A stretch of 64,000 nt of DNA, from the IMG/VR virus record IMGVR_UViG_3300048442_000818, positions 9,831 to 73,830 of that record; one strand, 5' to 3'. A program made the position numbers and the translations under genes. The notes under the pieces are model-generated. The model ran no database searches and had not been told where the DNA came from. It was given only the letters and a program-made list of their open reading frames with translations. Each line of letters starts with the position of its first letter. Positions within the stretch are counted from its first letter, which is position 1. This document shows positions 4,667 to 55,245 of this stretch, in pieces. Source of the stretch: a virus.

Positions 4667-7264
4667 ATGCGTTACCTGACGCTCACCGATCAAGAACAAC
4701 CCAGCTATCCTCTAGCGCTATTGGTTCCCACTATCCGTAAAAACGAAATTCAACAAGAATATATAGATCCTTTTGGTATTCCTTATGAAGATGTGTTGAT
4801 CATGGATCTTCACTACTCTCAGATTAAAAAGAAAACTCCTGTATCTGAAATCAAGGAGTATATCAAAAGTGAACTCGTACCGGCATTAACAGATATCAAA
4901 ACTAAATATATTGTTGTTGCTGACGGGGATTATTTTAAAGTACTCACAGGTGTTACCAAAGTAGAAGTAAATTTGGGTTATGTCTTAGATTGTGCTTTTG
5001 GTCCGTGGAAAGTTATCTACGTACCAAACTATCGATCTATTTTTTATGACCCAGAAAAAGTACGCAATAAAATTAAACAAGGCATGGATGCTTTGATTAG
5101 TCATGCTTCTAACCAGTATGTTGAACCGGGGAATAGTATTATTCACTTTGCTGAGTACCCCCGAACCAATAAGGAAATTCAGCAATGGTTAGATAAACTT
5201 CTTGAGATGGATTGTGATCTAGCTATCGATATCGAAGCATTCGATTTGAAGCACCATAAAGCTGGTATCGGTACGATTACCTTCTGTTGGAATAAGCATG
5301 AAGGTATTGCTTTCCCTGTTGATTACGTAGAAATCCCAGGCGCTACAGAAGCACCTTTCGGTAAGCAGGTTAGAAATGATTCTATTCGTCAGATGCTGCG
5401 GATATTTTTTGAGCAGTATGTGCAGAAAGTAATTTACCACAATATCACTTATGACGTGTATATTTTGATTTATGAACTATACATGACAGAAATTCTTGAT
5501 ACTAAGGGATTACTTAAAGGTATTGAGGTATTGCTCAAAAACTGGGATGACACTAAGCTAATTACTTATTTAGCAACAAACTCATGTTCCGGTAATAAAT
5601 TATCTCTTAAAGATCAAGCACAAGAATTTGCTGGTAACTATGCTAAAAGTGATATCTACGATATTACAAGAATACCTTTACCAGATCTTTTGAAATATAA
5701 CCTTGTAGATGGTTTATCAACTTGGTATGTCCACGAGAAACATTGGAATACTATGATTGCTGATAAACAAGGTGATATATACGAAAGCCTGTTTAAAAAA
5801 GCTGCTACTGATATCATCCAAATGCAGCTTACAGGTATGCCTATTAACATGGATGAGGTTAAACGTGTAAAGAGTATTCTTGAAAGTGACGAAAAGAAAG
5901 CACTAGATACGCTGCACAGCAGTTCAATAGTTCAGCAATACACTTATCGTATGAACGAGAATTGGGTTAAATGGAAGAACTCCACACTTAAAAAGAAAAG
6001 AGTTACTTTGGCTGATGCTAAGGAAGTATTTAATCCAAACTCAAATCCTCAATTACAAGATTTACTCTATAATATGCTTGGTTTACCTGTCTTATCTTTA
6101 ACAGACAGTAAACAACCTTCAACAGATAAAGATACTATTAAAGCTCTGTTGAATCATACAAGTGACAAATTCATTAAAGAGTTCCTTAAAGCTTTACAGG
6201 ATTTTTCTGCTGTTACCAAGATCCTCAGTAGCTTTATTCCAGCAATGGAAAATGCTGCTCAAGGATCTGATGGTTGGCATTACCTGTTTGGGAACTTTAA
6301 CCTCGGTGGAACAGTGTCAGGCCGGTTAAGTAGTTCAGATCCAAACCTACAAAACCTTCCTGCCACTGGGTCCAGATACGCCAAACTGATCAAGGGCTGC
6401 TTCCAGGCTCCTCCTGGTTGGCTCTTCTGTGGTCTGGATTTTGCATCCTTGGAAGACCGCATTTCAGCGCTTACCACCAAGGATCCTAACAAGCTTGCTG
6501 TCTACCTTGATGGGTATGATGGTCACAGTCTCCGTGCCTACACATACTTTAGTGAGCAGATGCCGGATATTGATCCTGACTCAGTAGAAAGTATTAACTC
6601 GATCCAAGAAAAATATAAGAGTTACCGACAAGAAAGTAAGGCACCGACATTTGCACTAACGTACCAAGGAACCTTCAAAACACTCATGACCAATTGCGGT
6701 TTCTCCGAAGAAGACGCTAAGATCATTGAGGCACGTTACCACGAGCTTTATCAGGTCAGTGACGCTTGGGTACAGGATAAGCTGAACCAAGCAAGCAAGG
6801 ACGGTTATGTCACTGTGGCGTTCGGTTTACGGGTAAGGACACCACTGCTTAAGCAGGTAGTCATGGGTAACAGCAAAACACCTTATGAAGCTATGGCAGA
6901 AGGCAGAACAGCAGGTAATGCATTAGGTCAATCATGGTGCTTACTGAATAGCCGAGCTAGTGGTGAGTTTATGGAAAAGGTGCGCAAAAGTGAGCACAGA
7001 CTAAATATTCGTCCTTGTGCTCATATCCATGATGCCCAGTATATGTTAGTGAAAGATGATATTAGTGCGGTGCTTTATGCTAACAAACATCTTGTTAAAG
7101 CAGTAGAATGGCAAGAGCACCCCGATATCGCTCACGATGAGGTTAAGCTGGGTGGGGAGTTTTCAATCTTCTGGCCTGATTGGTCAAAGGAGATTACTAT
7201 CCCCAATGGAGCCACCGAATCAGTTGTTAGATCTGTAATCGAAAACCATCTGTTATCGGAGTAG
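4667..7264 (+). CDS. Family A DNA polymerase with 3'-5' exonuclease and N-terminal UDG-like region
   Basis: ExoI AIDIEA, ExoII HNITYD; GRLSSSDPNLQN; motif A DFASLE, motif B R---K---F---Y, motif C HD. Confidence 0.95.
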   Translation: MRYLTLTDQEQPSYPLALLVPTIRKNEIQQEYIDPFGIPYEDVLIMDLHYSQIKKKTPVSEIKEYIKSELVPALTDIKTKYIVVADGDYFKVLTGVTKVEVNLGYVLDCAFGPWKVIYVPNYRSIFYDPEKVRNKIKQGMDALISHASNQYVEPGNSIIHFAEYPRTNKEIQQWLDKLLEMDCDLAIDIEAFDLKHHKAGIGTITFCWNKHEGIAFPVDYVEIPGATEAPFGKQVRNDSIRQMLRIFFEQYVQKVIYHNITYDVYILIYELYMTEILDTKGLLKGIEVLLKNWDDTKLITYLATNSCSGNKLSLKDQAQEFAGNYAKSDIYDITRIPLPDLLKYNLVDGLSTWYVHEKHWNTMIADKQGDIYESLFKKAATDIIQMQLTGMPINMDEVKRVKSILESDEKKALDTLHSSSIVQQYTYRMNENWVKWKNSTLKKKRVTLADAKEVFNPNSNPQLQDLLYNMLGLPVLSLTDSKQPSTDKDTIKALLNHTSDKFIKEFLKALQDFSAVTKILSSFIPAMENAAQGSDGWHYLFGNFNLGGTVSGRLSSSDPNLQNLPATGSRYAKLIKGCFQAPPGWLFCGLDFASLEDRISALTTKDPNKLAVYLDGYDGHSLRAYTYFSEQMPDIDPDSVESINSIQEKYKSYRQESKAPTFALTYQGTFKTLMTNCGFSEEDAKIIEARYHELYQVSDAWVQDKLNQASKDGYVTVAFGLRVRTPLLKQVVMGNSKTPYEAMAEGRTAGNALGQSWCLLNSRASGEFMEKVRKSEHRLNIRPCAHIHDAQYMLVKDDISAVLYANKHLVKAVEWQEHPDIAHDEVKLGGEFSIFWPDWSKEITIPNGATESVVRSVIENHLLSE

Positions 7265-7299
7265 TGCTGTACCTTAGTCTAAATAAAGGGGATCAGTCC

Positions 7300-7632
7300 A
7301 TGTCTGCAAAGCCTACCCCATTTAAACGGGGACAGACTTTTAGTTTCCTGTTGGAAATACCTGCTGAAATTGATGATGGAGCTTTGAACAGTTGGAAACC
7401 AACTGCTCAATTGCGTCGAGAACGTGATAACACTCCTACCGGTAAAATTGCTGATATGAACTGCTTTTGGGCAGATCCAGGTATCAACAGATATCTAACT
7501 GTATATCACAATAACACAGGTAGCTGGCCTTTGGGTTTAGCAGAATTCGATGTTTTGCTTACTTCATCTGATGGTCAGCAGTTACGATCTACAACAGCAC
7601 TTTTCGATATTCAAAGAGGTATCACAAAATGA
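7300..7632 (+). CDS. Small tail/fibre-associated beta-sandwich adaptor protein
   Basis: ATG 7300 with SD AAGGGG; KRGQTF...AQLR...W--G---FDV...S-T pattern typical of genes preceding fibres. Confidence 0.55.
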
Positions 7633-8768
7633 GTATTTCCCCTTCTGCACTGGAGGGGTTAAGCCTCTCCTTAGTTGGTACTCCCATTCAAGGGCCTCCA
7701 GGGAACCAAGGTCAAAAAGGTGACAAGGGTGACCCTGGTCCTGCTGGTCCTCAAGGCATAAAAGGAGATAAAGGCGATACCGGTGATACCGGACCCAAGG
7801 GGGATACTGGTTATCCTGGTCCTCAGGGTATCCAAGGCCCAATTGGACCAGAAGGTCCACAAGGCCCTCAGGGTCCACAAGGTGAAAAAGGTGATTCAGG
7901 TCAAGGTCTGATACCCCGTGGTGATTTTGTTTTAGGTGAAACTTATAACCCAAATGAGTATGTATTCTCCCTTGGTTCTGGGGGTGTTACATCTATGTTC
8001 ATTTGCCAATCTACAGTTTCATTTGTTGCAGATGAAACACCATTAAATGACCCCACTAATTGGACCGAATTTGAAGCACCAGCCGGTGCTGATGGTAAGT
8101 CTGTTGAGTTACAAAAAAATGCTACGCATATCCAATGGCGCCAGGAAGGTGGTAATTGGCAAGATCTTATTGCTGTAGCCGATCTTCAAGGACCACAGGG
8201 CATTCAGGGTGAGCAAGGCCCTGCTGGTGACCCTGGAACGGATGGTATAGATGGTGAAGACGGTAAGACCATCTACACTGTGTCCGGTGCTCCAAGTGCT
8301 GCTACAGGCGTTGATGGTGATTACGCTATTGATCCAACTGCACAAATGTTCTATGGCCCTAAAGACTCTGGATCCTGGCCTGCTGGTGTCAGTATTAAAG
8401 GGGAAAAAGGTGATCCTGGGGATGGTACTACTGTTGATGAAAGTCAGTTCCTTAAAAAAGTAACACCACCCATTGTTCAATCAGGTACTGCACTGACTGT
8501 TACCGCTGCTTGGACAGGTGAAGTTGTTGAGTTAACGGCTGCCACTAACCAAACAATCACACTTCCAGAAGATGCTACAGAAAACTTACCTGTTGGTTCC
8601 CAAGGTGTATTTTGGGTAACAGGTGATGGTGTACCAACTTTCCAAATTGAGGGTACAGATCAACTTATCTCGTTCAATGATTTAGTAACCGCTGCTGGTA
8701 AAAACAGTTGGGTTACATGGTACAAAGCCGCATCTGGTCGTTGGACTCTTGGAGGACAGTTAGCATGA
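7629..8768 (+). CDS. Collagen-like tail fibre protein
   Basis: Multiple (Gly-X-Y)n tracts; phage fibre motifs GAP---G-DGD--ID-----YGPK--W. Confidence 0.85.
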
Positions 8769-10435
8769 TGTTACCAATGCTCCATGGATTATTGTCCTCT
8801 AAAGCAGGTATTGTACCCCCAGCTGAAGCTGAAGCACCTACTGGTTTCTTAACAGGTGATACTCTTATTGAATCAAGCACATCAACACTAACACCTGCAC
8901 GTCCTGTAGGTGGAGGTGATGGTACATATTATGCCTGGATTATGCACCGAGACACTCTGACTTTACCTGCTGGTTGGGAAGAAGTAGCTACTCAGTTTGT
9001 TGGTAATCAGGAACTAAACCAAGCACTGACAGTAGCTAAAGCCCCTGCGTCAGTAACTAATATGACTTTTACCCAAGCAAGTGCTCAACGGTTTCTCGGT
9101 GTGGTTTTAGAAACAATAGGTGGTAGTGATTGGATTGAAACAATTACAAGCCAAGATGGTATTAATGTAAATGGTTGGCATGTTGGGTCAACAATCACAC
9201 CTCCCGGTAAAGGTATTGTTATGTCGGGTAGTTGCTCCACCCTTGCAAATACTAGTGGAGCAACTGAATATATGAGTACTCTACCTAGAATTACTCCTTA
9301 TGATGTTGACGATAACCGTCTCTGTGTTGCTACAGGTAATGTAGTTAAAAATAATGAAGTAACACCAGAATTTTATTCTGAACCTTCTAATACCGAATTA
9401 GCAGAAATTTCTATCACTTTAACCGATAATTCAGAAACTCCAGAAGAATTTTCAACAATACCTTTTATTACTCGATGGAAAGCTGGGGCATTTGGTGAAG
9501 ACTTTATAGTGTTACCTCTAGTTTCAGGTGGTAATTATGATTTTTGGGTAGATTGGGGTTTTGGGGTAGTAGACCATATAACATCCTATGATGATGCTAA
9601 AAACTCATTTCCATTTGCCGACAGCAGTACACCAACATATGATGTTAAAATTTATGGTGAATGTGATCGTTGGCAATTTGGCAGTGTTTCTGCTGCCAGA
9701 GATTCATTTAAAGATGTCATTCAATGGGGTGATGTTGAGTGGTCTACTTGTTTTGAAATGTTTAATAATGTTGATTTTGGTGTAGATGTACTTACCGCCA
9801 CAGATATACCGAATACCACAAATGTAACTGATTTTAGTTATATGTTTGCTCAAAGTAACGGCTTGACAGTTGCGCCCGACCTAGATATGGGTCAGGCTTT
9901 AAACGCTAGTAATATGTTTTATCTGTCAGACATAGAACAGACACCGTACTACAACACCGCGCTTTGCCAAGACTTCGGGTATATGTTCTACGGCCTGAAC
10001 AATTTATCTGGGTTTGGTGGTCTGGATACTTCATCCGCAATTGAAACCAATGACATGTTTTTTGACTGCGAGGGTCTAACCTCCGTCAATATAAATACAA
10101 CCACAGTTGAAAATTTCTCAGGCATGTTTGCCAATAACGCAAGCATTATAGACTGCGGTACGTTAGACATAGGTAACAATGGTAGTACTATCCTCAACGT
10201 TTTCAATAATACCATTAACCTAACAACTTTCCGCATATTAAATGCCAATTCCGAGCTGCAATTAGAAGATACTGCCGTAACTTGGGCAACTATATCGCAG
10301 CTTTGGGATGATCTACCTGTTGTAAGTGGAGAGCTTTACCATAGGATTAATATACAAGGCACTCCAGCAGTGTCCGATCCAAACTACGATCCTCAACCGG
10401 CCATAGATAAAGGATGGACAGTTACAGACGCATAA
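8765..10435 (+). CDS. Putative receptor-binding/adhesin protein with DUF285/BspA-like repeats
   Basis: ATGA overlap with upstream stop; VDWG PKD-like motif, QWG motif, repeated [10 protein letters not shown]-type units. Confidence 0.7.
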
Positions 10436-17168: not shown

Positions 17169-20100
17169 TTAGTCCATCAGACTATACCAGGGGTTCAGTT
17201 CCCAACTGTTCCAACCCATTTCAGGACCAATTGAGTAACCAAGACTACCATCCATAGCTTGAGTGAAGATGTTATCATTTACTGGTAAACCAACACTGCT
17301 GGGTGCAGGTAGAGTTGATGCTACTAAGAAATGTAGAGGATTGTTTCTAAGAGTACTTAAGGCAATCTTAGCAATACGGATCTTGTAGTTGTAAAACCAC
17401 AGTAGACCCATATTCTCCATATACCCTCTCCAACGTCCCGGTAAGCGATCATAGTTCGCAAACTCGGTAGTTACCCTACCCAAAGCATCAGCACTACTCA
17501 TTTTCTTACGTTGAGTTAAATCATCGTAGAGTACTGCTTTAGCTACAAAGTCACTGTACTGTACAGACTTTTGAAGAGCCTGGAACAGTGGAGTGTCTTT
17601 CATGATTAAACCATACCGGGCAGCCGTTCTGAGTTTGGGGGGCAGCTTATCAATCTGCTTACTGAAGTAGCTGTACAGATTACCAGTAGTCAGTTCCAGA
17701 TCTTCAGAAGACATACCGATATCCGCAATAGTGCTGAATTCCCCTGCCTGGATCAAAGGCCAGATACTCAGACGCTGATTAGAGTCAGTGATGGATCGGA
17801 TCTCAGCACGCAGTTTACGCTCCCGTACAAAGTCTTGGCCTACCGCCCTGAGTTCAGCTTCCAAATCAATCTGACGTAAGCGGTTCTTCACATAAGCATT
17901 GATCTCTACCAGCTTAGCTGGATACCCACGTTTGATATCCCGTACCGGTACACCTCTACTCACCAACTGGTAAGTGGTTGAAATGAAGTTATACACCGGT
18001 ACTACCACCGATCTAACAATAATGTTAGTACGAATATCAGACATTATATTTTGTGTGAATTGTTCACCTTTCACTAGAGTTTTATAAGCATCTGGTCCCA
18101 TTAAACCAACAAAGAAGTTTCTCCAAGCTTCATTAGTTAATGGATCTCTGTTGTTGCTATTGGTCCAGAAATCACCAACAGAAGGGTTACGATAACCTAC
18201 TGCATCTTCTAGCATATCTTTACGAACCCAGAATTCATCCCCAAATTTGCGATGAATATAATCTCTAGTATCGTCAGAGAATAAATTCACAGCATCTCTT
18301 TGTACTGGGCTAAGATTAGAACCAAAAAGGTTCACATACTCGTTGATTTTATCACGGCTAATTTTCATATCAGCCGTATACATATCATGGAGTCTATCAA
18401 TAGAAGTCTCGTTGAAAATTTGAGACATCTTTTCTTCAACCTGACGACCTCGCCAAACACCTAACATCCGGCTTAGGTCTTGTGATTCAGGTTCCAAACG
18501 GGCTTTCTGTGCTGGATCCACTGACTGCTCGTAAGCAAAGATTTGGCCTCTCTCATCGAATACAGGCATCAGGTTCTCAACATCACCCTGTTCTTGAGAC
18601 AGTCTGCGAGTGATTCGGGTCACATCAGCACGCCCAAAGATACGACCTGCCACCAGATCAGAGGTGAGACCTGTATGGGGATCAACTCCTGAAGCCGTAC
18701 GGTTGATGTTCTGAATAAAGCCTTGAGCATAAGCAGTACGACCAGAAATAGGAGTAAAGTAGTAGCTCTTGCTTGAGCGTCGGTTATCCACATTACTACC
18801 GTTATACGGACCCATGTTCACATAACCACGGATCCGCATATTGGACTCCTGGGCATTCTCTTCAATACGTAGAGATGCACCAGGGCTTTGCTCAGCCGGT
18901 ATATGGCCTTTGTAGTGGTTCACCAGGGCCTTACCCTTGTTTGCCTTACGAAGCTCTGTTCTACGCTGTCCTTGAAGGTATCCCAGCACGAAGTTGAGAC
19001 CATTGCTCTCATCCTGAACCAAGGAGGCCATAGCCTGCTTATCCTGGGTGGATAAACCATCCACAGCGTACAGAGTGATCAGTTGATCAATAGACCGTTG
19101 TATGGAGCTGTCAGGTGCCTTCCAGCCTGCTTGTCTGGATTCACCAAATAGGTTTGAGATCGCATAAGCATTACGAAGCAGACTGACCCCTGTTTTACCG
19201 GTGTTCATGAAAGTGGCAAGTTGCTTCATCTTTCTTTGGTAAATAGGCCAGTGAGCAGTATCACTCTGCTGAATGAGTCCTTCCAGATCGTTGATCAAAG
19301 CATCCAGTGAAGTTTGGCTCTGGAATAGATCCACGATATCTTGCGCAGGCATTGTTTCCATCAGGGCTGCCAGATCCGTTTTACCCATAGAACGGTACAT
19401 TGAGGACCATTCTTCCTGAGACAGCTTTCGACTGAATTTGTTATGCAGCACTCGTGGAATTTCATCTCTAAAGTTCTGACGTAATTGCTGCACTGCTGCC
19501 CTGACAGTTTTGATCATGTCATAGACTTGAGCATTGCCTTCGGTACGATCTACAAGGTTGTTCACCAAATCATAGAACGGCTTCCAGATCCGACCACGGT
19601 TCATTAATCCCATCAGTTCTTGGGATACCATGTCGGCTCGTTCTTCAGAGGCAATGGACGAAGCCAGCTTTAGGAAGTTACCTGCGAGTTTAGTTGGAAG
19701 ACTCTGGGATTCCTGTCCTTTGGTTCCAAGTTTGTAACCGGTATCTGCAAGGGTTTGCATACCGTTTACCATCCAATCGTTTACAGCGTCATATTTATTA
19801 CCAATCTTATCTGTTACCTCGCGGATAGTGGTCTGCTCATCCAAAGCAGCTTTGGTAATCTGATTCATCAAATTATCCATAGCCGCTTTGACATTGGCAG
19901 CATCACGCTGACCTGACATACGATTTGACAGTGAATCTGATGCAGTGACCAATAAGTTATCCAAAGCAGCATCCATAGTTTTTTGATCTGACTTAACAGA
20001 TTTTGGAACCTGCATATTTGCTAAGATATCTCTAAACTCTTGGTTCACAGTGGATAGTGCAATGAACACAGGTAACAGAGTAGTGCGCCCATATGCATCT

Positions 20101-23100
20101 GTTTGACGATTTACTCGACCCAAAATAGTGTTGTATTTTTCTTGCGCATAATAGCGATCAGCATCAGGGTTACGAGAATTCTCTGGCATAAAGCTATCAA
20201 CACTCAGGTTTTTAGTTACATGAGTGTATAGCTCCTGCATTTGAGCCAAAGCGTTAGGATCCAATTTAGCTTCAGTAGCCAGAGTAGCTACGATTGTTTT
20301 GAATGTGGTGGCTTCATTGATATCCATATTGAAGTGAGCACTTACTGCATCATTCAGAGCATCAATGGCTACTTGGCCTGATTCTGAAAGGAGGCGGTTC
20401 TGCTGCACTTCGCGTTCGGTATCGGGATACTCATCTAAGAGATCAACAATCTTGGTTTGAAGAGCATTACGGATATCTCGTAAGCGGGTATTATTCCCAT
20501 AGGTTGCATGGAATAACGTACCTTCCTGGAATACAGAAGATAGATTTGGCTGAGTACGAATAATGATACCGGTGTTGAATTGTAGATTACTCAACACATC
20601 ATCAGCGTGTTTAGGAGCGTGCTTACGACCCCAAACTAATTTCTTGATTTCTTGCCACAGATCTTTAGCAAGTTGAACTAACTTGTTCGTTTTTGTTTTC
20701 TTCAGTCGATTAGTGATCTGTTCGTTAGTAAGACCCCATGCCATAAACTCGTTAAGGGCTTTAGCCTGTGAGGCAGCAGGATCCATATTCAGATCATTCT
20801 GAGCACTCTCAATAGCAGCTCTAGCATTATCAAATGCCATGTACATTTCGTTAGGTAAACCACTTTCCAGATCCATGGAAAGAAAATCATTGAGCATGAT
20901 CTCCATTCGCTCAATAGCCCTTCTTGCTTCTGGATCCACTTTTTCACCACGATAATATGAAAGCAGTGTTTCATAGGTAGAAGCGTGAACCATTTCGTGG
21001 ACCAAGGTTTCAGTGGTTGGGTTGATCAGATAAATCACCCGTTCCGCTACTGAAATCACACCGTGAGCCGTAGCATCTCCCGTGTTAATTGAACTCAAGC
21101 CAGTTTCACGTTGGTATGCAGCAATTTGCTCAGGTGTACCAGCAATGATTTTGTAATCTTTGGTTCCCAGATTACGAATGATTTGAGCATAGATATCTCT
21201 TTGTGGTTGGGTCATGTTGACCAACCGACCGAGATTTTTCAGGGCTGTCCAGCTAATTACACGTACACCTGAAGCTTTATGTTCACGGCCCACTTTCTGA
21301 ATATCTTCAGACATGCCATCAGCTACAGGAGCTTCTTCTGTAGCTTGCTGTTTGCCTGAAATTTTCTCTTGATAACGAGCATTCAATTCATCAGCAATTT
21401 GTTCAGGTGTCATCTGTGCATCAAGAGTTACAGTTCCATTCACATAAGGTGAGGCAGCACCAGCCATATGATCAATAGAATGAAGAACATCACTCATTAC
21501 CTGACGACGAATAGAGACACTATCTTCCGCTTGCTGAAGAAATTTACCTTTCCTATCCAACATATCCAAGATAGCTTGAGAAGTAGCTACTTCTTCTTCT
21601 GGATCCAGATAAGGAAACAAGGCACGGGTAAAATCTCTATGCATCGGTGTATCTTTCACCTGCATATCATTCTTTAACATATCTTCGATTAGATCTTTTG
21701 ATTTCATAAATTGTTTATAGGAATCATTGACTGCCTTAAACGGATTACCATTGATCCAGGAGTCATACACAGCCTTATTGGCTTTTTCACTGTATTCAGT
21801 GATTTTATCCAAAGGCATGTTGATACCATCAAAGATATCAAGGGTATTGTTCATTTCAGTATCCAGAGAAGTTCTCTGGATCATGTTAGCGTCACCCATA
21901 CCAATGGTTAGGAACGGAATACCCGCAACACCAGCATTGGCTGGGGCATAAGCGTAAGCATCCGTTCTCATGGTTCCATCAAGAGCACGACTGAATGCTG
22001 GACCACCTTCAAGCATCTGAGTCTTAGCAATTAGAAATACTTGACCTTGTGTTTGAACCAAAGGAGATACTTTGAATATTTCTTTGTAGATTGCAGTGAA
22101 GTCTTTACGAGAAAGGAAATCACCAGGACGGTAGGTAGGATCATTTTTCTTACGATCCTCTAACCGTTCATTAATCAATCTACGGAACAGATACTCCAAA
22201 ACAATAGACTGTGATTGGGTTGCTTGACGGATTTTATCAACAGACCTCATAAGAGGAGCACCAACTGTATCTTCAATACCAAACCGCAGAGGTCTAACAA
22301 AACCTTCAAGCATGTTTTGTTTGATACTTTGGATCTGTTCTGGTGTAAAAGTGAACTCTACTGGATCCGCAGACTGACGTGTGCGATCTGAAGGTTCTAA
22401 GAAGTATTCACCACTTCTCTGGTTATAGCGTATTTTATTGGCTAACAGGGTATTTAAAGCATCAACAAACTGACGACCCTGTTTTTCAGGATTTGGTTCA
22501 TTAGGGAATAGAGCTTCACCCAAGGTAATTTTAGGATAAGCTTCTCTTGCCTGGGCAAATTGAGACATTTTACTGTAAATGTCTTTCACCATTTGGGATG
22601 TAAGATTACCAGCAATACCTGAGATTGAAGAACCATACACCAAAATGGTAAGTGGGTTCTTGGCAATACCACGGTCAAGCTCAAAGGATCCTGGCTCACC
22701 TAATTCAACATCACCGTTGTACTTAACACCCGGTAATGTGACATTCATCAATGTCATCAATGCCTTAACGTTACCTAGTAGCCCATCAGATTTCTTATTA
22801 CGACCCAGTACATTGATAAGGGTACGTAGATGCTTATCTGAATTGATCGTAGCTGTTTTGTACAAATCAACAGGATCTCTTTGGCTGAGTTCAGCCATAG
22901 TTTGGCGAGTGCCGATAGAGACACCACCTTTAGAAATATTCTGGATCCACTCAGGAGTAAACCGGCCTGGGGTCATTAACATCATAGCGTTGATTGGGCC
23001 ATCGGTTACACCATCCCCCTCAAGATATATTGAGGTACGGAAAGATTCTCTCTCACCTAACGGAGTTTGTGTTAACCGTGCGTATTCCATAAGAGCATTC

Positions 23101-26100
23101 AAAGCTACAGGCGTAACATCAATACCCGCAGAATCAAGATGACCCTTCAGAATATAAGCATCCAGAGGATTTACCTCAGTAGTTATTAATGAGTTGGTAT
23201 CAGTGCCACTTACCCAATCGTTGATCAGATCCAGAGCAGGGACCAAAGGACCAGTAAGTAAGTTTTGTACTTGCTCAACTGTATCTTCTAAAAGTTGATT
23301 ATGAACTTTAATATCTAATGCTTGACCAATAGAAAGTAAGAAATGATTGTAAATAGTACTGTTTTCATTAGACAAATCAACAGTACTCCACGTAGGTAGA
23401 ATAGCCTCACGAACTGCTTTATCTGATTGAGGGTTGTAAGCACCCAGCATCTGCATACGCCCAACACGGGAAATATTATAAGCGTACCGAATTGGCATCT
23501 CAGAAACCGATACACCTTCTGTTTCAGCACGGTTAACCATACGATCAACCGTATTAAATAGGTGATTGTATGCAGAAGTAATAGTGCGATTTTTACCTTC
23601 AATAGATTTAGCATGGTTTATATTAAGGGTTTGATTATCACCCGCTGATTCACCAAGCAGAGTTAACATACCCTCTCTACCGAAAGCAGAGTATAGATTT
23701 ACCATTGGAATATTCAGATAAAAAGGTACTTTTTGTTTGTTCTCAATCGCTTCTTTTTGTTTTATAGTGTTAGCTACTTCTGGGTTATTCATCTGACGCT
23801 GGGCAACAGGAATTTCCTGATCACCAATGTAGAACACTTCTTCTGGACTAATTAGAACAGCATCATCAATAGCAGTTGGGTAAGCATGAATTGGATTACC
23901 TTCCATTGGTGATACAAGATACCGATTAGGTGTTTTATCTGAATCCAGACCAAAGGATTTCAGGTCAACGGTAGTGACACCCATCATACCCGTATCAATA
24001 AAAGCCCTGATCATTTCAGCAGCTACTGCTTCAGGAATACCCTCAGAATAAGCAATGTCCGCATCAGCAGTAGCCGTTACACCCCAGTATTCTTTGATCT
24101 TGTTAGCAAGAGATCGCTTCACCTGCTCAAGACTCATACCCTCATTGAGAAGGCGTATGACCTCATAAGGTACGATTTCAGCGTCCACACCAGTGATAGC
24201 AGAGATGTCTGAATCATCCATTGGAGTGTGGTACTGGTTAGATGTCAGTAACCACTGAATAGCTGCTAAAGCAGCAGTCTCTAACAATTCTGGGTTGTAT
24301 TGGTAACCTTCTGGTGTTTCATCAACAATATTAAGTGCTTTACCTCTAGCCCATCTTTGAATATCAGCATCAGTTTCTAATACATCACGGATCGTTCTTT
24401 TATCTTTATTTGAAGACCATGAATAACGACTATTTAAGAAACGATCTAAATTAGCAGACATAGCTGACATAAGACCACCGACAGATTGAACACTTTTAAT
24501 CTGTGCAGCAGTAAGATCATTAGTTTCACTCTTTATCAGGTATTCACTTGCTTTTGGATCATTGCGTAACAAAGTTTGATATTCAGATGCGATCTCAGGA
24601 GTTAAAGTGTATTTAGGGGTATTACCCATAAATTCAATCAAACTCCCGGATGAAGATAAAGCATCTTGAACCAAGAGGATGGGGGATCCTTCTTGACCGA
24701 TTAATCGAGTAGGTGCTTCTTCTGTGTTCGGTAATCTGAACACTTTTTTGAAGAAGTTTTCACCGCGAGTAAGTAGATTTGGGTATAGGGAATCCAAACC
24801 TGTAGTGGGGGTATCTACCGGTTCAGCCTCAGCAGAAACAGGTTCTGGGGTGGATTCCTCTATAGTGGTATCCACTTCTTCCTGGGGCTGTGTTTGAACA
24901 GGCTCTGGATCAGGTTGAGTTTCAGTAACTGGCTCAGGTTCTGGCTGTGCTTCTTGTTCTTGCACCTCTGGTTCAGGTTCAGCCGGTTTATTGATCTCAG
25001 CAAACGCCTCCGCAGGGGTAAGCTTACGGATATCAGCATCTGTTAAGCCACGCTCTCTTAATTGAGCACGCATAGCTTGCGTGATCATTACGGGTACGCT
25101 GGCTGTAGTGGTTTTTTGTGTTGGCGTATCTTTTGTGATTTGCTGTACCTGATCGGGGTTAAATACTACAACCTCCTCGTAACGGAACTCAGGGTCTGCA
25201 TAAAGTAAGCCGTCATACCCTTCCGTTATTAAGGCATCACGTTGTTCTGGTGTGATGCCTGTAATCACTATGGGATCATTATCTTTAACCAAATAAGGAT
25301 TTTGAATGTTTACCCGGAAAGTGAGTGTTACTCCCCCTTCTTGCATTCCTTGGGAATATGCAATGTTTTTTGTAGTGTAAAACCCAACGAGAGTACCCGT
25401 GTTGTTTCCTATAAAATGCACAGTAGAAGGTCGTTCACGTTCAGCAATCACTTTAAAATTTTCTGCTTCTACTGCCCTTGTTGTGTGGTAAGTCAACCCT
25501 TTTACTACGCTATCCGGAAAAATGTGATCGTATGCAGAAGTATCAGAAATAATCTCTGATTTTGGTTCAGCTTTTTTTAATTCAGAATTAGAGGTTGACT
25601 TATTTTGTTGATTTTTCGTAAATATTTCACGTAATCTTTCAGCATTAGCAACAGCAGTAGATTTACGACGTTCAAGATCAGATTTTATCTGCTCATACCT
25701 ACTATCATTTTTATCTACACCGGGATTTATATTGAGATTACGTGCATATCTTTCTGCCCTAAGTACTATATATTCTGCAAGATCAAAACGATCATTATTA
25801 ATTGCTGTATTTAGTTGTGCAAAAGTTTCTGGGTTTGAGGGATCAATTACTGGAGCAACTACCGCATCATATAGAGTTTTTTCTATTTCTGGGCTGTTTT
25901 GTCCTGGCGCACGATCACCCCTTATATATATTTGTTCATTCTTTTCAAAATCTAATTGTGCTTCGAGAGTCTCAATACGTAGTTCTGACCCTGACTCAAG
26001 AGTAGATTCTGCCTGTTCTTGCTGTTGTTCTGGCTCTGCTGTTACTTCAGCTTGTCTTTGTCCAGGTACAACACGCTCACCGGAACGGAAAGCATCAACA

Positions 26101-28919
26101 ACTTCTTGTGGTGTGCCTTCTAATGCTGGATCTAAAAATAGGGGTTCAAATTTCTCATTACCAAGCTCTGGGAATGCATCAACTAAACCATTGTAAATAT
26201 TCACAAGAGTTTCTTGCTCAGCTTGTACTGACTTAACCAGTTCTACTGATTTAGCTGATTTCCAGTTAACATACATGCCTTTGCTATCTGCTTTAGGGTT
26301 ATTAGATGACAATAACCACTCACGGGTAACAGGTACCAATGACATATACGGAACAGCTTCAGCATTAGGATTGCCGTTATCAAAGTGTTCATTAGCTGCT
26401 CTAACTTTGTTTTGCATGTGTTGTACAAACAAACCAAAGTCTTCCAGACGAGCACTAGCAATATCAGGACGATTACCACGAACAGCCTCAACAATACCTT
26501 TGGTATGCTGTAAAGCTGATCTGGCATTCTCCCTTCTTGGATCATTACTTGCTACGATCTGACTAGAAACTACGTCTTTAGCGGTTTGCAGACCACTATC
26601 AGCAATTTTCTTCTCAAGCTTTTGACGCTCACGAAGTAAGTCATAACTAACCTGTAATGCTTGACGTTGTGAGTTAGTTAACTCTAAACGACCCTCTTCA
26701 GCGTGCTTAAGAATACCTTCAATCACTTCAGGGTTGCCCTGGTCAGGCATTAGTTCAGCCATGGCAACGGCTGTACGGACACGGCGTTGACCTTCTTCCG
26801 TGTTGACGTTTCTTTCCGTAACAGGCTTCAGTGATTTAGTTACAGCACCACTTTTAGCGGATGCATCTAAAGCACGCATAGCTCTCATTACAGAAGCATT
26901 CTTTTCCAGATCCCAGATTAACCGGTCATATCGAAGCAATGTATCTCTGGCTTCGTGATCCTCAGGGATTTTTTCCATGATAGCCGGTTCAGCTTCTTTC
27001 AGGTCCAGAAGTGGCTGCATTAGCTCCTGTAGCACTGCTGCGGCTTGGATCTGTTCTGGGCCTTCGGGTAGGCGGGCTACTTCACGAGCTACTTCCTGAA
27101 TTGCTTCAACACGGTTTGTGGCCGTGGCTGTCACTTCACGAAGATTTTCTGGCACAGATTCAGGGTCAAACTGCATAGACTGAACCAAGGAAGAAACGTA
27201 AGCATTGCCTTCTGCACGCTCTTCTGGAGTGGCTTCTACGGTGTTGATCGTATCAGACAGGTCTTGTGCTGTTTCAGCCGTCTGTTGTGCTGTAGCGGCT
27301 GCCTGCTCTCTCATGGCTTCATCACCAACAGGTGATTGCTGCTGTACCTGCTGACGAATTTTGTCACCTCTTTCAACGATAGCGTTGAAAGCAGGCTTAC
27401 CTGCTTCAATAGCAGAAGAGATAGCCTTACGAGTTATTTTGTAAGTAGGTTCAGCAACAGTTCTAGTTGCTTGGGCAGCAGCACCAGGAGATCTAATAGC
27501 ACCGGCGGAAGTTACACCGTAAGCAGCACCTTCACCGACTTGACGGCCCACATCAGCAGATAATGACTGCTCAGGGTCAACATATTCCTGACTAGCTAAA
27601 TTCTCGGCCACACCGCTGACAGCGCCCTGTAATGCTTCTTCTCCAGGTTCTCTAAGTAGAACATCACCTGCTAACTGTCGAGCGCCAACAGCACGGAAAG
27701 GTGCTTCACCGATTCGTGAGATTGTACCTAAGCCTGCTGCAATAGGAGCTGTTCGGGTAGCAGCATAAAGACCAGCTTCATTAGCCAAATGTGTTTTGGC
27801 TTGTTCCTGGGCTGTTGCTTCATCCATACCCTGGTCAAGAAAGTTTTGCTTCAGTTCACGATAAGGTTGTGATGTCTGTTCCAGTTGTTCTACCGGAGTA
27901 GACATAATCTCGGTATTGACCTGTTGGTAGACACCACCACCTTCCATAGCACCAATAGCAGCAGGCCAAGCAGAAGCACTGGCTAAATCACGAGTACGAT
28001 CTGCTACCCTGGCAGCCGACATAGTGTCAGTTGCCCTGTCCAATTCAGCAGCTAAACGGGTAGAAACACTTCCTGCCACACCACCTGTGACAGCCCGACC
28101 AATGGCTTTAAGACCTTTGGTAATGACACCACCACCAACAATGGAACCAACACCCTCAGATGTACCTGAAAGCAACATGGTTGGGTCCGACACAGCATTG
28201 GCAATGGCATCAACAGCATCACTACCGACACGTTTAAGACCAGATACTAGTTCACCATCACCGGCTGCTAAATTAGCTTGATACTCAGCTTCATTATCTC
28301 TTTCAGCTAAATTTTGACGAGCTTCGTAATTACGACGAGCAGCACTTAACTGTTCTGATTGAGTGCCTTGTACCCATTCATTAGCGCTATTCATACCGTC
28401 AGTAATAGAAGCACCTAATTCAGCATCCAGTAAACCACCGCCCACTGCGGCAATACCACCAATGCTATTGCCCACACCAGCGGCTATCCCAGAAGCAGTG
28501 TCCCACAGTGCTTCACCAGTTGTACGGTCATAACCGGCTCTATCACGGCTTACCTCGGAAGAAGCAGCAGAAAACTGTCTAATCAATTCTGGTGCATCAG
28601 CCCCGTACTTCAAATATAACGAGGGGGTATCTAGGGTTCTGAGATCTTCCTCTAATTCACCCATGCTGGCAGCACCCATTTGGTTACCACGGCCAGCAGC
28701 AGCTTGATACATATCGGGGTTTATTTGGGGTAGTACACTACTGATTTGATCTTGCTTTTGGGCTGAAGCCTGGGTAATAGAATTCTTCTTTTCTCCTAGA
28801 GCACGTTGGAAAGCATTGTTCATAATCCCCCGTTCATCCACAGATAGTGGAGTTGCTCCTTGAGTTGGGGTAGTAGAAGACGTAACTGCTTGATCCAAGA
28901 GGGTCTGAAAATCTGCCAT
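17169..28919 (-). CDS. Virion-encapsidated RNA polymerase (N4 gp50-like), 3916 aa, with inserted ART-like domain
   Basis: SRVGR, motif A EGDGVTDGP, motif B RGIAKNPLT--YG, motif C IFDG; no Cys seen after ATG 28919. Confidence 0.95.
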   Translation of the reverse strand: MADFQTLLDQAVTSSTTPTQGATPLSVDERGIMNNAFQRALGEKKNSITQASAQKQDQISSVLPQINPDMYQAAAGRGNQMGAASMGELEEDLRTLDTPSLYLKYGADAPELIRQFSAASSEVSRDRAGYDRTTGEALWDTASGIAAGVGNSIGGIAAVGGGLLDAELGASITDGMNSANEWVQGTQSEQLSAARRNYEARQNLAERDNEAEYQANLAAGDGELVSGLKRVGSDAVDAIANAVSDPTMLLSGTSEGVGSIVGGGVITKGLKAIGRAVTGGVAGSVSTRLAAELDRATDTMSAARVADRTRDLASASAWPAAIGAMEGGGVYQQVNTEIMSTPVEQLEQTSQPYRELKQNFLDQGMDEATAQEQAKTHLANEAGLYAATRTAPIAAGLGTISRIGEAPFRAVGARQLAGDVLLREPGEEALQGAVSGVAENLASQEYVDPEQSLSADVGRQVGEGAAYGVTSAGAIRSPGAAAQATRTVAEPTYKITRKAISSAIEAGKPAFNAIVERGDKIRQQVQQQSPVGDEAMREQAAATAQQTAETAQDLSDTINTVEATPEERAEGNAYVSSLVQSMQFDPESVPENLREVTATATNRVEAIQEVAREVARLPEGPEQIQAAAVLQELMQPLLDLKEAEPAIMEKIPEDHEARDTLLRYDRLIWDLEKNASVMRAMRALDASAKSGAVTKSLKPVTERNVNTEEGQRRVRTAVAMAELMPDQGNPEVIEGILKHAEEGRLELTNSQRQALQVSYDLLRERQKLEKKIADSGLQTAKDVVSSQIVASNDPRRENARSALQHTKGIVEAVRGNRPDIASARLEDFGLFVQHMQNKVRAANEHFDNGNPNAEAVPYMSLVPVTREWLLSSNNPKADSKGMYVNWKSAKSVELVKSVQAEQETLVNIYNGLVDAFPELGNEKFEPLFLDPALEGTPQEVVDAFRSGERVVPGQRQAEVTAEPEQQQEQAESTLESGSELRIETLEAQLDFEKNEQIYIRGDRAPGQNSPEIEKTLYDAVVAPVIDPSNPETFAQLNTAINNDRFDLAEYIVLRAERYARNLNINPGVDKNDSRYEQIKSDLERRKSTAVANAERLREIFTKNQQNKSTSNSELKKAEPKSEIISDTSAYDHIFPDSVVKGLTYHTTRAVEAENFKVIAERERPSTVHFIGNNTGTLVGFYTTKNIAYSQGMQEGGVTLTFRVNIQNPYLVKDNDPIVITGITPEQRDALITEGYDGLLYADPEFRYEEVVVFNPDQVQQITKDTPTQKTTTASVPVMITQAMRAQLRERGLTDADIRKLTPAEAFAEINKPAEPEPEVQEQEAQPEPEPVTETQPDPEPVQTQPQEEVDTTIEESTPEPVSAEAEPVDTPTTGLDSLYPNLLTRGENFFKKVFRLPNTEEAPTRLIGQEGSPILLVQDALSSSGSLIEFMGNTPKYTLTPEIASEYQTLLRNDPKASEYLIKSETNDLTAAQIKSVQSVGGLMSAMSANLDRFLNSRYSWSSNKDKRTIRDVLETDADIQRWARGKALNIVDETPEGYQYNPELLETAALAAIQWLLTSNQYHTPMDDSDISAITGVDAEIVPYEVIRLLNEGMSLEQVKRSLANKIKEYWGVTATADADIAYSEGIPEAVAAEMIRAFIDTGMMGVTTVDLKSFGLDSDKTPNRYLVSPMEGNPIHAYPTAIDDAVLISPEEVFYIGDQEIPVAQRQMNNPEVANTIKQKEAIENKQKVPFYLNIPMVNLYSAFGREGMLTLLGESAGDNQTLNINHAKSIEGKNRTITSAYNHLFNTVDRMVNRAETEGVSVSEMPIRYAYNISRVGRMQMLGAYNPQSDKAVREAILPTWSTVDLSNENSTIYNHFLLSIGQALDIKVHNQLLEDTVEQVQNLLTGPLVPALDLINDWVSGTDTNSLITTEVNPLDAYILKGHLDSAGIDVTPVALNALMEYARLTQTPLGERESFRTSIYLEGDGVTDGPINAMMLMTPGRFTPEWIQNISKGGVSIGTRQTMAELSQRDPVDLYKTATINSDKHLRTLINVLGRNKKSDGLLGNVKALMTLMNVTLPGVKYNGDVELGEPGSFELDRGIAKNPLTILVYGSSISGIAGNLTSQMVKDIYSKMSQFAQAREAYPKITLGEALFPNEPNPEKQGRQFVDALNTLLANKIRYNQRSGEYFLEPSDRTRQSADPVEFTFTPEQIQSIKQNMLEGFVRPLRFGIEDTVGAPLMRSVDKIRQATQSQSIVLEYLFRRLINERLEDRKKNDPTYRPGDFLSRKDFTAIYKEIFKVSPLVQTQGQVFLIAKTQMLEGGPAFSRALDGTMRTDAYAYAPANAGVAGIPFLTIGMGDANMIQRTSLDTEMNNTLDIFDGINMPLDKITEYSEKANKAVYDSWINGNPFKAVNDSYKQFMKSKDLIEDMLKNDMQVKDTPMHRDFTRALFPYLDPEEEVATSQAILDMLDRKGKFLQQAEDSVSIRRQVMSDVLHSIDHMAGAASPYVNGTVTLDAQMTPEQIADELNARYQEKISGKQQATEEAPVADGMSEDIQKVGREHKASGVRVISWTALKNLGRLVNMTQPQRDIYAQIIRNLGTKDYKIIAGTPEQIAAYQRETGLSSINTGDATAHGVISVAERVIYLINPTTETLVHEMVHASTYETLLSYYRGEKVDPEARRAIERMEIMLNDFLSMDLESGLPNEMYMAFDNARAAIESAQNDLNMDPAASQAKALNEFMAWGLTNEQITNRLKKTKTNKLVQLAKDLWQEIKKLVWGRKHAPKHADDVLSNLQFNTGIIIRTQPNLSSVFQEGTLFHATYGNNTRLRDIRNALQTKIVDLLDEYPDTEREVQQNRLLSESGQVAIDALNDAVSAHFNMDINEATTFKTIVATLATEAKLDPNALAQMQELYTHVTKNLSVDSFMPENSRNPDADRYYAQEKYNTILGRVNRQTDAYGRTTLLPVFIALSTVNQEFRDILANMQVPKSVKSDQKTMDAALDNLLVTASDSLSNRMSGQRDAANVKAAMDNLMNQITKAALDEQTTIREVTDKIGNKYDAVNDWMVNGMQTLADTGYKLGTKGQESQSLPTKLAGNFLKLASSIASEERADMVSQELMGLMNRGRIWKPFYDLVNNLVDRTEGNAQVYDMIKTVRAAVQQLRQNFRDEIPRVLHNKFSRKLSQEEWSSMYRSMGKTDLAALMETMPAQDIVDLFQSQTSLDALINDLEGLIQQSDTAHWPIYQRKMKQLATFMNTGKTGVSLLRNAYAISNLFGESRQAGWKAPDSSIQRSIDQLITLYAVDGLSTQDKQAMASLVQDESNGLNFVLGYLQGQRRTELRKANKGKALVNHYKGHIPAEQSPGASLRIEENAQESNMRIRGYVNMGPYNGSNVDNRRSSKSYYFTPISGRTAYAQGFIQNINRTASGVDPHTGLTSDLVAGRIFGRADVTRITRRLSQEQGDVENLMPVFDERGQIFAYEQSVDPAQKARLEPESQDLSRMLGVWRGRQVEEKMSQIFNETSIDRLHDMYTADMKISRDKINEYVNLFGSNLSPVQRDAVNLFSDDTRDYIHRKFGDEFWVRKDMLEDAVGYRNPSVGDFWTNSNNRDPLTNEAWRNFFVGLMGPDAYKTLVKGEQFTQNIMSDIRTNIIVRSVVVPVYNFISTTYQLVSRGVPVRDIKRGYPAKLVEINAYVKNRLRQIDLEAELRAVGQDFVRERKLRAEIRSITDSNQRLSIWPLIQAGEFSTIADIGMSSEDLELTTGNLYSYFSKQIDKLPPKLRTAARYGLIMKDTPLFQALQKSVQYSDFVAKAVLYDDLTQRKKMSSADALGRVTTEFANYDRLPGRWRGYMENMGLLWFYNYKIRIAKIALSTLRNNPLHFLVASTLPAPSSVGLPVNDNIFTQAMDGSLGYSIGPEMGWNSWELNPWYSLMD

Positions 28920-28973
28920 GAGAACGGTACCCAATGTGAATATATGTTTGGAAGTAACTCTACCATAGATTTG

Positions 28974-29004
28974 AAAAAAAGAAGCCCCACCAATGCAGGG
29001 CTTC
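28974..29004 (-). terminator. Terminator upstream of vRNAP gene
   Basis: GAAGCCC...GGGCTTC followed by T7 on minus strand. Confidence 0.7.
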
Positions 29005-29032
29005 AAGTATTACAAGGTAGAGTTTACATGCC

Positions 29033-54070: not shown

Positions 54071-54613
54071 ATGTCCAAGACGCTTATCTATGCGGGCATC
54101 GGTAGCCGCCAAACACCAGAGCCTGTGCTGGCCTCCATGTATTCGATAGCACAACAATTGTCTGACTTCTGGATGCTGAGATCAGGTCACGCTGATGGTG
54201 CTGATATGGCCTTTGAAAAGGGTTGTATTAGCAAAGCTGGAGCCATGGAAATCATGGTGCCGTGGCTTGGCTTCAATAAAGCACCAACAAACGATGCACG
54301 TTATATACGTCCCAAAGCTACTGACATATTGGCTAAGTTTGCTGGTCAATTTCACCCTAACTGGGCTAACTGCAAAGATACCGTGAAATTGATGCATATG
54401 TGTAATTGCTGTCAGATTCTCGGTGAATACGGTGATGCACCGGTCGATATGGTGATTTGTTGGACACCTGGAGGCAAAGGCGGTGGTGGCACTGGTCAAG
54501 CTATTCGTGTAGCTCACCATTTCGATATACCGGTCTTTGATCTTGGTAGTAAACGTACCGCAGAAGACCTGTGTACTTTTGTGTCACTCGTCGAGCATCA
54601 ATCTGCCGATTGA
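54071..54613 (+). CDS. SLOG-superfamily (DprA/Smf/YspA-like) nucleotide-binding protein
   Basis: YAGIGSR-TP, LRSG-A-GAD-AFE, GGTGQA-R-A, IPVF-L. Confidence 0.8.
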   Translation: MSKTLIYAGIGSRQTPEPVLASMYSIAQQLSDFWMLRSGHADGADMAFEKGCISKAGAMEIMVPWLGFNKAPTNDARYIRPKATDILAKFAGQFHPNWANCKDTVKLMHMCNCCQILGEYGDAPVDMVICWTPGGKGGGGTGQAIRVAHHFDIPVFDLGSKRTAEDLCTFVSLVEHQSAD

Positions 54614-54650
54614 TCCTCTCCTCGCGTTAATTTGTTGGGTTTGTTTTGTT

Positions 54651-54893
54651 ATGCCAATGACATTGACTGAGAAAAACCGCATTACCCAGATGATTATTAA
54701 ATATGGAACCAAAGAGGTAATGCGGAACATCAACAATGCTCAGAGGAATCTGAGTGAGGAATATTACCGTGATAATCCAGAAGCAATCATTCATGAATAT
54801 GTACCTGTTATACATGATTGCTACGTGAAACTTGCAGATGTGGAATACAGGAGACTGACAGATGCCGAAGAGAATCTTCGTATTCGGAAGTAA
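54651..54893 (+). CDS. Hypothetical protein
   Basis: ORF filling gap between SLOG and macro-like genes; start uncertain. Confidence 0.45.
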   Translation: MPMTLTEKNRITQMIIKYGTKEVMRNINNAQRNLSEEYYRDNPEAIIHEYVPVIHDCYVKLADVEYRRLTDAEENLRIRK

Positions 54894-55245
54894 TGAGGCG
54901 GGTATCCATGGTGCTGGTGCGGCTAAAACAGCGTACCAGAAGCATGGTGCTCGATGGGGTAAGTCCTATGGTCATTACGGGGATAGCTTTGCTATCCCTA
55001 CCAAGGACGACATCATCAAGACACTGCCCATTCCCGTAATCAAACAGTACGTTGAAGGATTCATAGCTTATGCTTGGGGACACCCCAAACTTAACTTTAA
55101 GGTGACGTGTATTGGCTGTGGCCTTGCAGGTCTCAAACACCAAGACATAGCACCATTGTTTAAGAATGCTCCTAGCAACTGTTATTTCGATGAACTCTGG
55201 AAAGAGTGGTTAGGAGATAAACATAAATATTGGGGTACTTTCTAA
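54862..55245 (+). CDS. Macrodomain-like protein (IFVFGSN family)
   Basis: IFVFGSN--G-HGAGAA, AIPTK, IGCGLAG motifs resembling macrodomain loops. Confidence 0.7.
   Translation: MPKRIFVFGSNEAGIHGAGAAKTAYQKHGARWGKSYGHYGDSFAIPTKDDIIKTLPIPVIKQYVEGFIAYAWGHPKLNFKVTCIGCGLAGLKHQDIAPLFKNAPSNCYFDELWKEWLGDKHKYWGTF

Follow-up and report, generated by a model that had tools for sequence, protein, structure and literature searches.

A predicted ADP-ribosyltransferase domain of the ART-PolyVal type within the linker of an N4-type virion RNA polymerase from an uncultured marine phage

The largest gene in the window, by which we mean the whole stretch of 64,000 nucleotides that was analysed (positions 9,831 to 73,830 of IMG/VR record IMGVR_UViG_3300048442_000818), encodes a virion RNA polymerase (vRNAP) of the N4 type. 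The virus record is complete at 73.8 kb, and the sequencing runs that match it come from seawater or marine metagenomes, possibly including the sample from which the record was assembled; no RNA datasets are listed among the runs containing this virus. Counted from the first ATG at 28919 the protein is 3916 amino acids long, compared with 3500 for N4 gp50, and both lengths agree with those given in an earlier reading of this DNA, referred to here as the initial annotation. The open frame itself extends to a TTG at 29006 (17169..29006, minus strand, 3945 codons).

Pfam recognises vRNAP_dom_2, vRNAP_plug, N4_RNAP_helical and vRNAP_dom in the protein with E values of 1e-9 to 1e-53, PHROG 2206 (“virion RNA polymerase”) matches it with 2682 bits, and blastp aligns it with N4 gp50 at 41% identity across 2666 amino acids. 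Homologues of N4 gp51, gp52 and gp53 lie upstream of the gene and the N4 order is kept. The T7-like polymerase core has matches in 211 cultured phages, none of them above 41% identity, so the phage represents a lineage with no cultured close relative. The C-terminal part carries the HEMVH motif of a zincin-like peptidase (MPTase) module, and HExxHAxT is kept in an alignment of the proteins that carry the ADP-ribosyltransferase (ART) domain described below. Iyer et al. place an HExxH zincin module in all N4-like vRNAPs and suggest that it may release domains after injection.

The additional length of the protein relative to N4 gp50 includes a single block. In the blastp alignment residues 44-976 of the vRNAP correspond to N4 residues 18-940 and residues 1309-3914 to N4 residues 944-3498, and because the protein aligns on either side of the block, the latter is a clean single-point insertion at N4 940/944. 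It separates the N-terminal domain from the polymerase core, as the initial annotation had placed it. A 2026 structural study describes residues 907-1007 of N4 vRNAP as a flexible linker of about 100 residues that connects a membrane-inserting N-terminal domain to the polymerase; in the model put forward there, the linker keeps the polymerase attached to the membrane as it regains its fold in the cytoplasm (PMC13434306). The insertion point falls within this published linker.

The insert and its surroundings are listed in Table 1. Low-complexity sequence flanks the ART domain, as had been noted before, with Ser, Asn and Lys prevailing ahead of it and Glu, Pro and Thr following a small helical motif. 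An AlphaFold2 (AF2) model of the whole 328-residue insert has a mean pLDDT of 40 and is confident only at this helical motif (pLDDT 63-83). In the model the motif resembles HeH/Rho-N by eye, and Pfam gives no match for it.

Table 1. Features of the vRNAP gene and of its insert, in coordinates of the window
Feature	Position	Strand	Basis
vRNAP gene, 3916 aa from first ATG	17169..28919	minus	ORF list and translation
Insert relative to N4 gp50, 332 aa (vRNAP residues 977-1308)	24996..25991	minus	blastp
Ser/Asn/Lys-rich low-complexity stretch before ART	25524-25622	minus	composition
ADP-ribosyltransferase domain, ART-PolyVal / N4-ART type, ~130 aa (residues 1133-1262)	25134..25523	minus	Pfam, hhalign, AF2, Foldseek/VIA
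His1145, motif YHTT, strand 1, predicted NAD+-binding	25485..25487	minus	conservation and VIA ranges
Tyr1181, motif GFYTT, strand 2, predicted nicotinamide-stacking	25377..25379	minus	alignments
Asp1236, GYDG motif	25212..25214	minus	invariant in every alignment, including that with the roseophage RPP1 domain
Glu1249, motif EEVVVF, predicted catalytic acid	25173..25175	minus	conservation and VIA ranges
Small three-helix HeH-like motif directly after ART (residues 1276-1311, 36 residues)	24987..25094	minus	AF2 model
Acidic Glu/Pro/Thr-rich low-complexity linker, 63 aa (16 Glu, 14 Pro)	24798..24986	minus	composition count
T7-like polymerase core of vRNAP	21462..23759	minus	Pfam domains, P0002 residues 1750-2515
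HEMVH motif of C-terminal zincin-like peptidase (MPTase) module	20985..20999	minus	motif position

Translation of the minus strand between 25000 and 25700 yields the motifs LTYHTT, GFYTT, NIQNPY, EGYDGL and EEVVVFNPDQV, the same series that the initial annotation had quoted in assigning the block to the ART-PolyVal family. ART-PolyVal (PF18760) is the only relevant Pfam family for the domain and matches it at an E value of 1.6e-4 and 22.9 bits over profile positions 10-139 of 140, the gathering score of the family being 31.2. A homologous vRNAP that is 52% identical over the domain (P0003) exceeds this gathering score with 32.3 bits. When 1.84 billion representative proteins were searched with the domain by phmmer, with heuristics switched off, 17 matches reached E ≤1e-3, four of them below 1e-10, and the distant matches P0012, P0018, P0020 and P0021 are members of PF18760 (47-89 bits; library-wide E 2.8e-5 to 7.6e-4). 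When a profile of the seven closest sequences was compared by hhalign with Pfam-positive members, the probability was 99.6% and the E value 2.7e-24, with YH.T, G.Y, NP, GYDG and E..F.P.Q all kept in register; an alignment that included short family members was set aside, its His motif being misplaced. On this evidence the domain is an ART-PolyVal homologue, which we read as a divergent subfamily with a signature of its own (NPYLVKDND and DPEFRYEE), and the assignment made from the motifs holds.

The sub-threshold Pfam score might nevertheless be taken to mean that the motifs are a chance resemblance and that the block is a folded spacer unrelated to ARTs. A sequence search of the PDB with the domain is in keeping with this, as it returned a chance-level match only; a profile of the full-length alignment matched only the C-terminal part of N4 vRNAP and was uninformative about the ART. 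Against it stand the hhalign result, the library-wide significant matches to PF18760 members, the homologue above the gathering score and a predicted fold that matches almost only ARTs, and together they leave this explanation effectively refuted.

Modelled on its own, the domain reaches a pLDDT of 70.6 and a pTM of 0.67. The best Foldseek matches in the PDB are all PARP-family catalytic domains, with E values around 1e-2 and probabilities of 0.96-1.0. An exhaustive VIA comparison with 48,161 chains gave a top Z of 7.7 over 119 residues, and nearly all of the 50 matches listed belong to the ART superfamily: they include PARPs, diphtheria-type toxins, RES, ParT, Arr, pertussis toxin and Scabin, the R-S-E toxins being the weakest structural matches among those listed. 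The single scores are middling (Z <8), and it is the consistency of the match list that carries the call of a PARP- or diphtheria-toxin-like ART fold for the model.

The catalytic domains of PARP1, PARP2 and tankyrase are thus the best structural matches, and in them the His and Glu of the model coincide with the PARP triad. Identity to the PARPs is only 13-18%, however, and the domain, at about 130 residues, lacks their helical and regulatory parts. The Pfam PARP family (PF00644) gave no match at E values up to 1 with either the domain or the whole vRNAP. We therefore rejected membership of the PARP family itself, the likeness being one of fold and triad.

The three residues proposed as catalytic by the initial annotation lie exactly at the codons it had named, as His1145, Tyr1181 and Glu1249. 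His1145 is kept in all members of the clade and in the canonical members of the family. The sequence Gly-Phe-Tyr is invariant in the seven-sequence alignment, and Tyr1181 aligns with the Tyr of the canonical G-x-Y-F-[TS] motif; its motif also resembles the G-I-Y-F-A motif of PARPs. Glu1249 is at least 90% conserved and is replaced by Asp in P0008. The ends of the aligned ranges in the VIA matches point to the same residues: in the usual numbering of the PARP residues, His1145 falls within one residue of PARP1 H862, PARP2 H428 and TNKS1 H1184, and counted from the C-terminal ends Glu1249 falls on PARP1 E988, PARP2 E558, PARP3 E514, TNKS1 E1291 and PARP10 I987. Arithmetic on these ranges leads us to infer that the His, Tyr and Glu would sit together in one cleft of the modelled domain.

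With His1145, Tyr1181 and Glu1249 present and conserved, the domain is by sequence a member of the His/Tyr/acid (E/D/Q) group. Iyer et al. (2017) described the family as H-Y-D (PMC5512222), whereas the aligned acid here is Glu, and the acid meant in 2017 may be at the position of Asp1236 or at that of Glu1249. The triad of the initial annotation thus appears to be correct, with Glu1249 as the probable acid.

Retention of these residues also bears on whether the domain is an enzyme at all. PARP13 and the pseudo-PARP of TASOR are among the structural matches, the sequence is divergent and scores below the Pfam gathering threshold, and in the literature searched we found no report of activity for any vRNAP-borne ART, all of which would suit a catalytically dead domain of the PARP13/TASOR kind that acts in the linker as a spacer, a sensor of NAD+ or ADP-ribose, or a binding module. 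It is usually the His or the Glu that has gone in pseudo-ARTs, however, while all seven members of the clade retain the His, the Tyr, the acid, the NP and the GYDG, and the domain is better conserved than the essential polymerase that carries it. We therefore consider a dead domain very unlikely.

An ART in an N4-like vRNAP is not new. Iyer et al. (2017) wrote of the ARTs of polyvalent proteins as “prototyped by” that in the vRNAP of Roseovarius Plymouth podovirus 1 (RPP1) and proposed the same Alt-like role after injection (PMC5512222), and in 2022 the family was named “N4-like/N4-ART” and counted among the most frequent viral ARTs (PMC9503650). The novelty implied by the initial annotation is consequently lost: the fusion, the family and the hypothesis are already published, and the window provides a further example, divergent and intact-looking in sequence. 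The condition it had set for novelty, that the domain not be present in most N4-like vRNAPs, is satisfied in a narrow sense only, in that most cultured N4-like phages do lack it. What can be added is modest, namely the precise site in the N4 linker at which the insert lies, an uncommon subfamily that spans distant marine vRNAPs, and identity patterns that hint at mobility of the module.

The ART of RPP1 (CBX87992.1) also matches PF18760, with 36.5 bits over residues 1023-1096, and it too lies in an N4-like vRNAP at the junction of N-terminal domain and polymerase; both phages are marine. The two domains are nevertheless barely alignable, with no phmmer match at E 10 and an hhalign E value of 0.045, and RPP1 has beside its ART a second zincin (M90/SprT-like, residues 1252-1387) that the window protein lacks. 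The polymerase of the window is 25% identical to that of RPP1 as against 41% to that of N4. As it resembles the N4 polymerase much more than the roseophage polymerases do, what is known of N4 vRNAP, including the linker and the model of ejection, should be transferable to it. With an ART that is compact, well conserved and apparently intact in a polymerase this close to that of N4, the window contributes to the study of ARTs that phages deliver, a subject now attracting attention (T4 Alt, ModB, DarT and NAD+-based defence).

The canonical ART-PolyVal domains of polyvalent proteins from phages and conjugative elements (for example P0020, P0021 with a fused PBECR5 nuclease, and the multi-copy P0009-P0017) are of the same family by the hhalign comparison given above and have the same order of motifs, and in them too the effector lies within a giant protein that is delivered. 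They are about 25-30% identical to the window domain, whose clade is rare. The vRNAP of the window, which carries an HExxH zincin module besides the ART, likewise has the make-up of a virion-packaged, multidomain polyvalent protein, a class in which a zincin MPTase is common. In crAss-like phages a canonical ART-PolyVal member matches ORFs annotated “RNAP associated protein fused to zincin protease” or “RNA-polymerase subunit”. There too an ART rides on a polymerase carried in the particle, but the type of polymerase is unrelated and the ART subfamily is different.

The likeness to T4 Alt is that of an ART carried by the particle, which is delivered with the DNA and modifies host proteins before phage genes are expressed. 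Alt differs in being a separate head protein of the R-S-E (Alt/VIP2) clade, while the window domain is of the H-Y-E type, PARP-like and part of a polymerase. The Arg, Ser-Thr-Ser and Glu-x-Glu motifs of Alt/VIP2 were looked for in the domain and not found, its motifs being YHTT, GFYTT and EEVVVF, and membership of the Alt/VIP2 family was ruled out on the H-Y-E type of these motifs.

We consider it probable that the domain is a genuine, divergent ART-PolyVal (“N4-ART”) enzyme, PARP-like with an H-Y-[E/D] active site, that rides in the vRNAP linker, is injected and likely ADP-ribosylates host macromolecules. By analogy with Alt, an injected NAD+-dependent effector is plausible. The N4-type vRNAP would be threaded into the cell together with the DNA, and the polymerase would, as in N4, stay tethered to the inner membrane via the linker. 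Given such injection and such a tether, the ART, if not cleaved off, would come to lie in the cytoplasm close to where the DNA enters, and would refold there ahead of any phage gene expression. It would then most likely mono-ADP-ribosylate macromolecules of the host, proteins being the likeliest, at the expense of host NAD+. It might do so on its tether or once the zincin peptidase of the same polypeptide has released it, and the purpose could be take-over of the host or counter-defence in the style of T4 Alt.

The target is the part of this scheme for which a different answer deserves some weight. An active enzyme of the ART fold could instead modify nucleic acid in the manner of DarT or Scabin (the entering DNA or its single-stranded hairpin promoters, for example), have the vRNAP itself as its substrate, or do no more than use up NAD+. 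The structural match list includes ARTs directed at DNA, RNA and small molecules (Scabin, Arr, RES and ParT), the tether would hold the ART where the DNA enters the cell, beside a polymerase with single-stranded DNA as its ligand, and directly after the ART comes the HeH-like helical motif, of a shape that often binds nucleic acid. Iyer et al. (2022, PMC9503650) allow for both proteins and nucleic acids as substrates of the family. PARPs that modify proteins lead the structural matches, however, the helical motif has no profile support, and the authors who described the family favour host proteins and the Alt analogy (PMC5512222). We hold this reading to be possible and distinctly less probable than the one above. 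A partner “eraser” consisting of a SLOG domain and a macrodomain, considered elsewhere in the window at 54071-55245, was rejected, as the region gave only DNA_processg_A at an E value of 0.088 and the macrodomain ORF had no Pfam match.

The distribution of the subfamily can be compared with that of the RPP1-type ART. The latter occurs inside the vRNAP in 18 records, all of them roseophage N4-likes except for one partial crAss-like match. The subfamily of the window gave no tblastn match at E 1e-3 in 50,697 phage records and no match in a single-protein scan of IMG/VR, while a narrower, alignment-based scan found two loci. It is present at the same junction in three further uncultured vRNAPs, namely P0003, P0004 and an ORF of L006 that is 3638 amino acids long with a core 48% identical to N4.

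Compared between vRNAP carriers, the ART shows 41-64% identity and the remainder of the protein 20-41%, and because the ART is so much better conserved than the polymerase it is presumably under selection as a working module. The L006 and P0004 proteins share 64% identity in the ART together with a common indel of about 30 residues, but only 28% identity in the core, and the closest polymerase relative of L006 is that of N4, which has no ART. This discordance of ART and polymerase is one of pairwise identities and a single shared indel, and it fits an exchange of cassettes, their capture at the linker on several occasions, or a constraint of unusual strength. The window ART is moreover far closer to the ARTs of polyvalent proteins than to the roseophage vRNAP ART. 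Independent capture of an ART at the same linker by the window phage and by RPP1 is plausible, because the two ARTs are barely alignable and the polymerases are only 25% identical.

A bolder proposal would be that the linker of marine N4-like vRNAPs serves as a cargo bay in which ARTs are repeatedly captured and exchanged among distant phages, and that the present subfamily acts locally where the DNA crosses the membrane. Its substrate there might be the incoming DNA or its hairpin promoters, the vRNAP itself, whose transcription it would switch, or a sensor of host defence, for example; an Alt-like enzyme that diffuses and modifies the RNA polymerase of the host would be a different thing. 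We regard this combination as a long shot. The subfamily has further carriers in P0006, a vRNAP-like protein of great divergence in which the ART lies close to the N-terminus, and in two proteins that are not vRNAPs, P0005 (at L005 4782-8717) and P0008.

The identity between the ARTs of two carriers of the subfamily, the 3638-aa vRNAP of locus L006 and the vRNAP P0004, is 64%, while that between their polymerases is only about 28%. The two ARTs also have in common an insertion of approximately 30 residues, placed after the Tyr strand and ahead of the strand that follows it. The polymerase of L006 is 48% identical to that of N4, which itself contains no ART.

P0006 (3783 aa) resembles vRNAP but is very divergent: its only matches are to the C-terminal domain and, weakly, to the core. 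It has an ART of the same subfamily at residues 345–464, which is near the N-terminus and not at the linker. In L005 the ART lies at the C-terminal end of a complete protein that is set among a row of large ORFs (701, 1330 and >784 aa). None of these ORFs has a Pfam family or resembles vRNAP; they probably encode internal or ejection proteins of another kind of podophage.

Features of the vRNAP, of the loci carrying the ART subfamily and of a rejected partner candidate
Feature	Sequence	Coordinates	Strand	Remarks
First ~150 insert residues, N-terminal of ART	window	25524-25991	-	predicted helical, very low model confidence
Three-helix motif, 36 residues, directly C-terminal to ART	window	24987-25094	-	predicted structure; contains MRAQLRERGLTDADIRKLTPAEA
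HEMVH motif, C-terminal part of vRNAP	window	20985-20999	-	kept as HExxHAxT among carriers
SLOG + macrodomain candidate pair	window	54071-55245	+	
Complete 1311-aa protein with C-terminal ART	L005 (IMGVR_UViG_3300017527_000170)	4782-8717	+	same ART subfamily
vRNAP ORF	L006	5103-16016	+	

Upstream of the ART, the first insert residues have no family match, and about 60 of them (vRNAP residues 1075–1133) are also present in P0008. The region C-terminal to the ART is common to the vRNAP and the 1311-aa protein of L005. The three-helix motif, the sole confident region in the model of the whole insert (pLDDT 63–83), matched no family in Pfam and by eye looks like the HeH/SAP/Rho-N type.

In the fold search, the ART model matched residues 1418–1610 of chain B of PDB 9k3a, the cyanophage A4 pre-ejectosome, with a Z score of 7.1 over 113 residues, a row that ranks amid the PARP rows. 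Because the structure paper (PMC12002296) contains neither “ADP-ribosyl” nor “PARP”, an ART-like domain in this ejection protein may have passed unremarked.

The proposal that a SLOG and macrodomain pair partners the ART as its ADP-ribose “eraser” was rejected for lack of Pfam support; the sole match of the first ORF was to DNA_processg_A (E 0.088), and the putative macrodomain ORF had no Pfam matches.

Pfam reported nothing at the HEMVH site of the vRNAP. At N4 residues 2130–2448, Iyer 2017 (PMC5512222) located a zincin-like MPTase, to which this motif corresponds.
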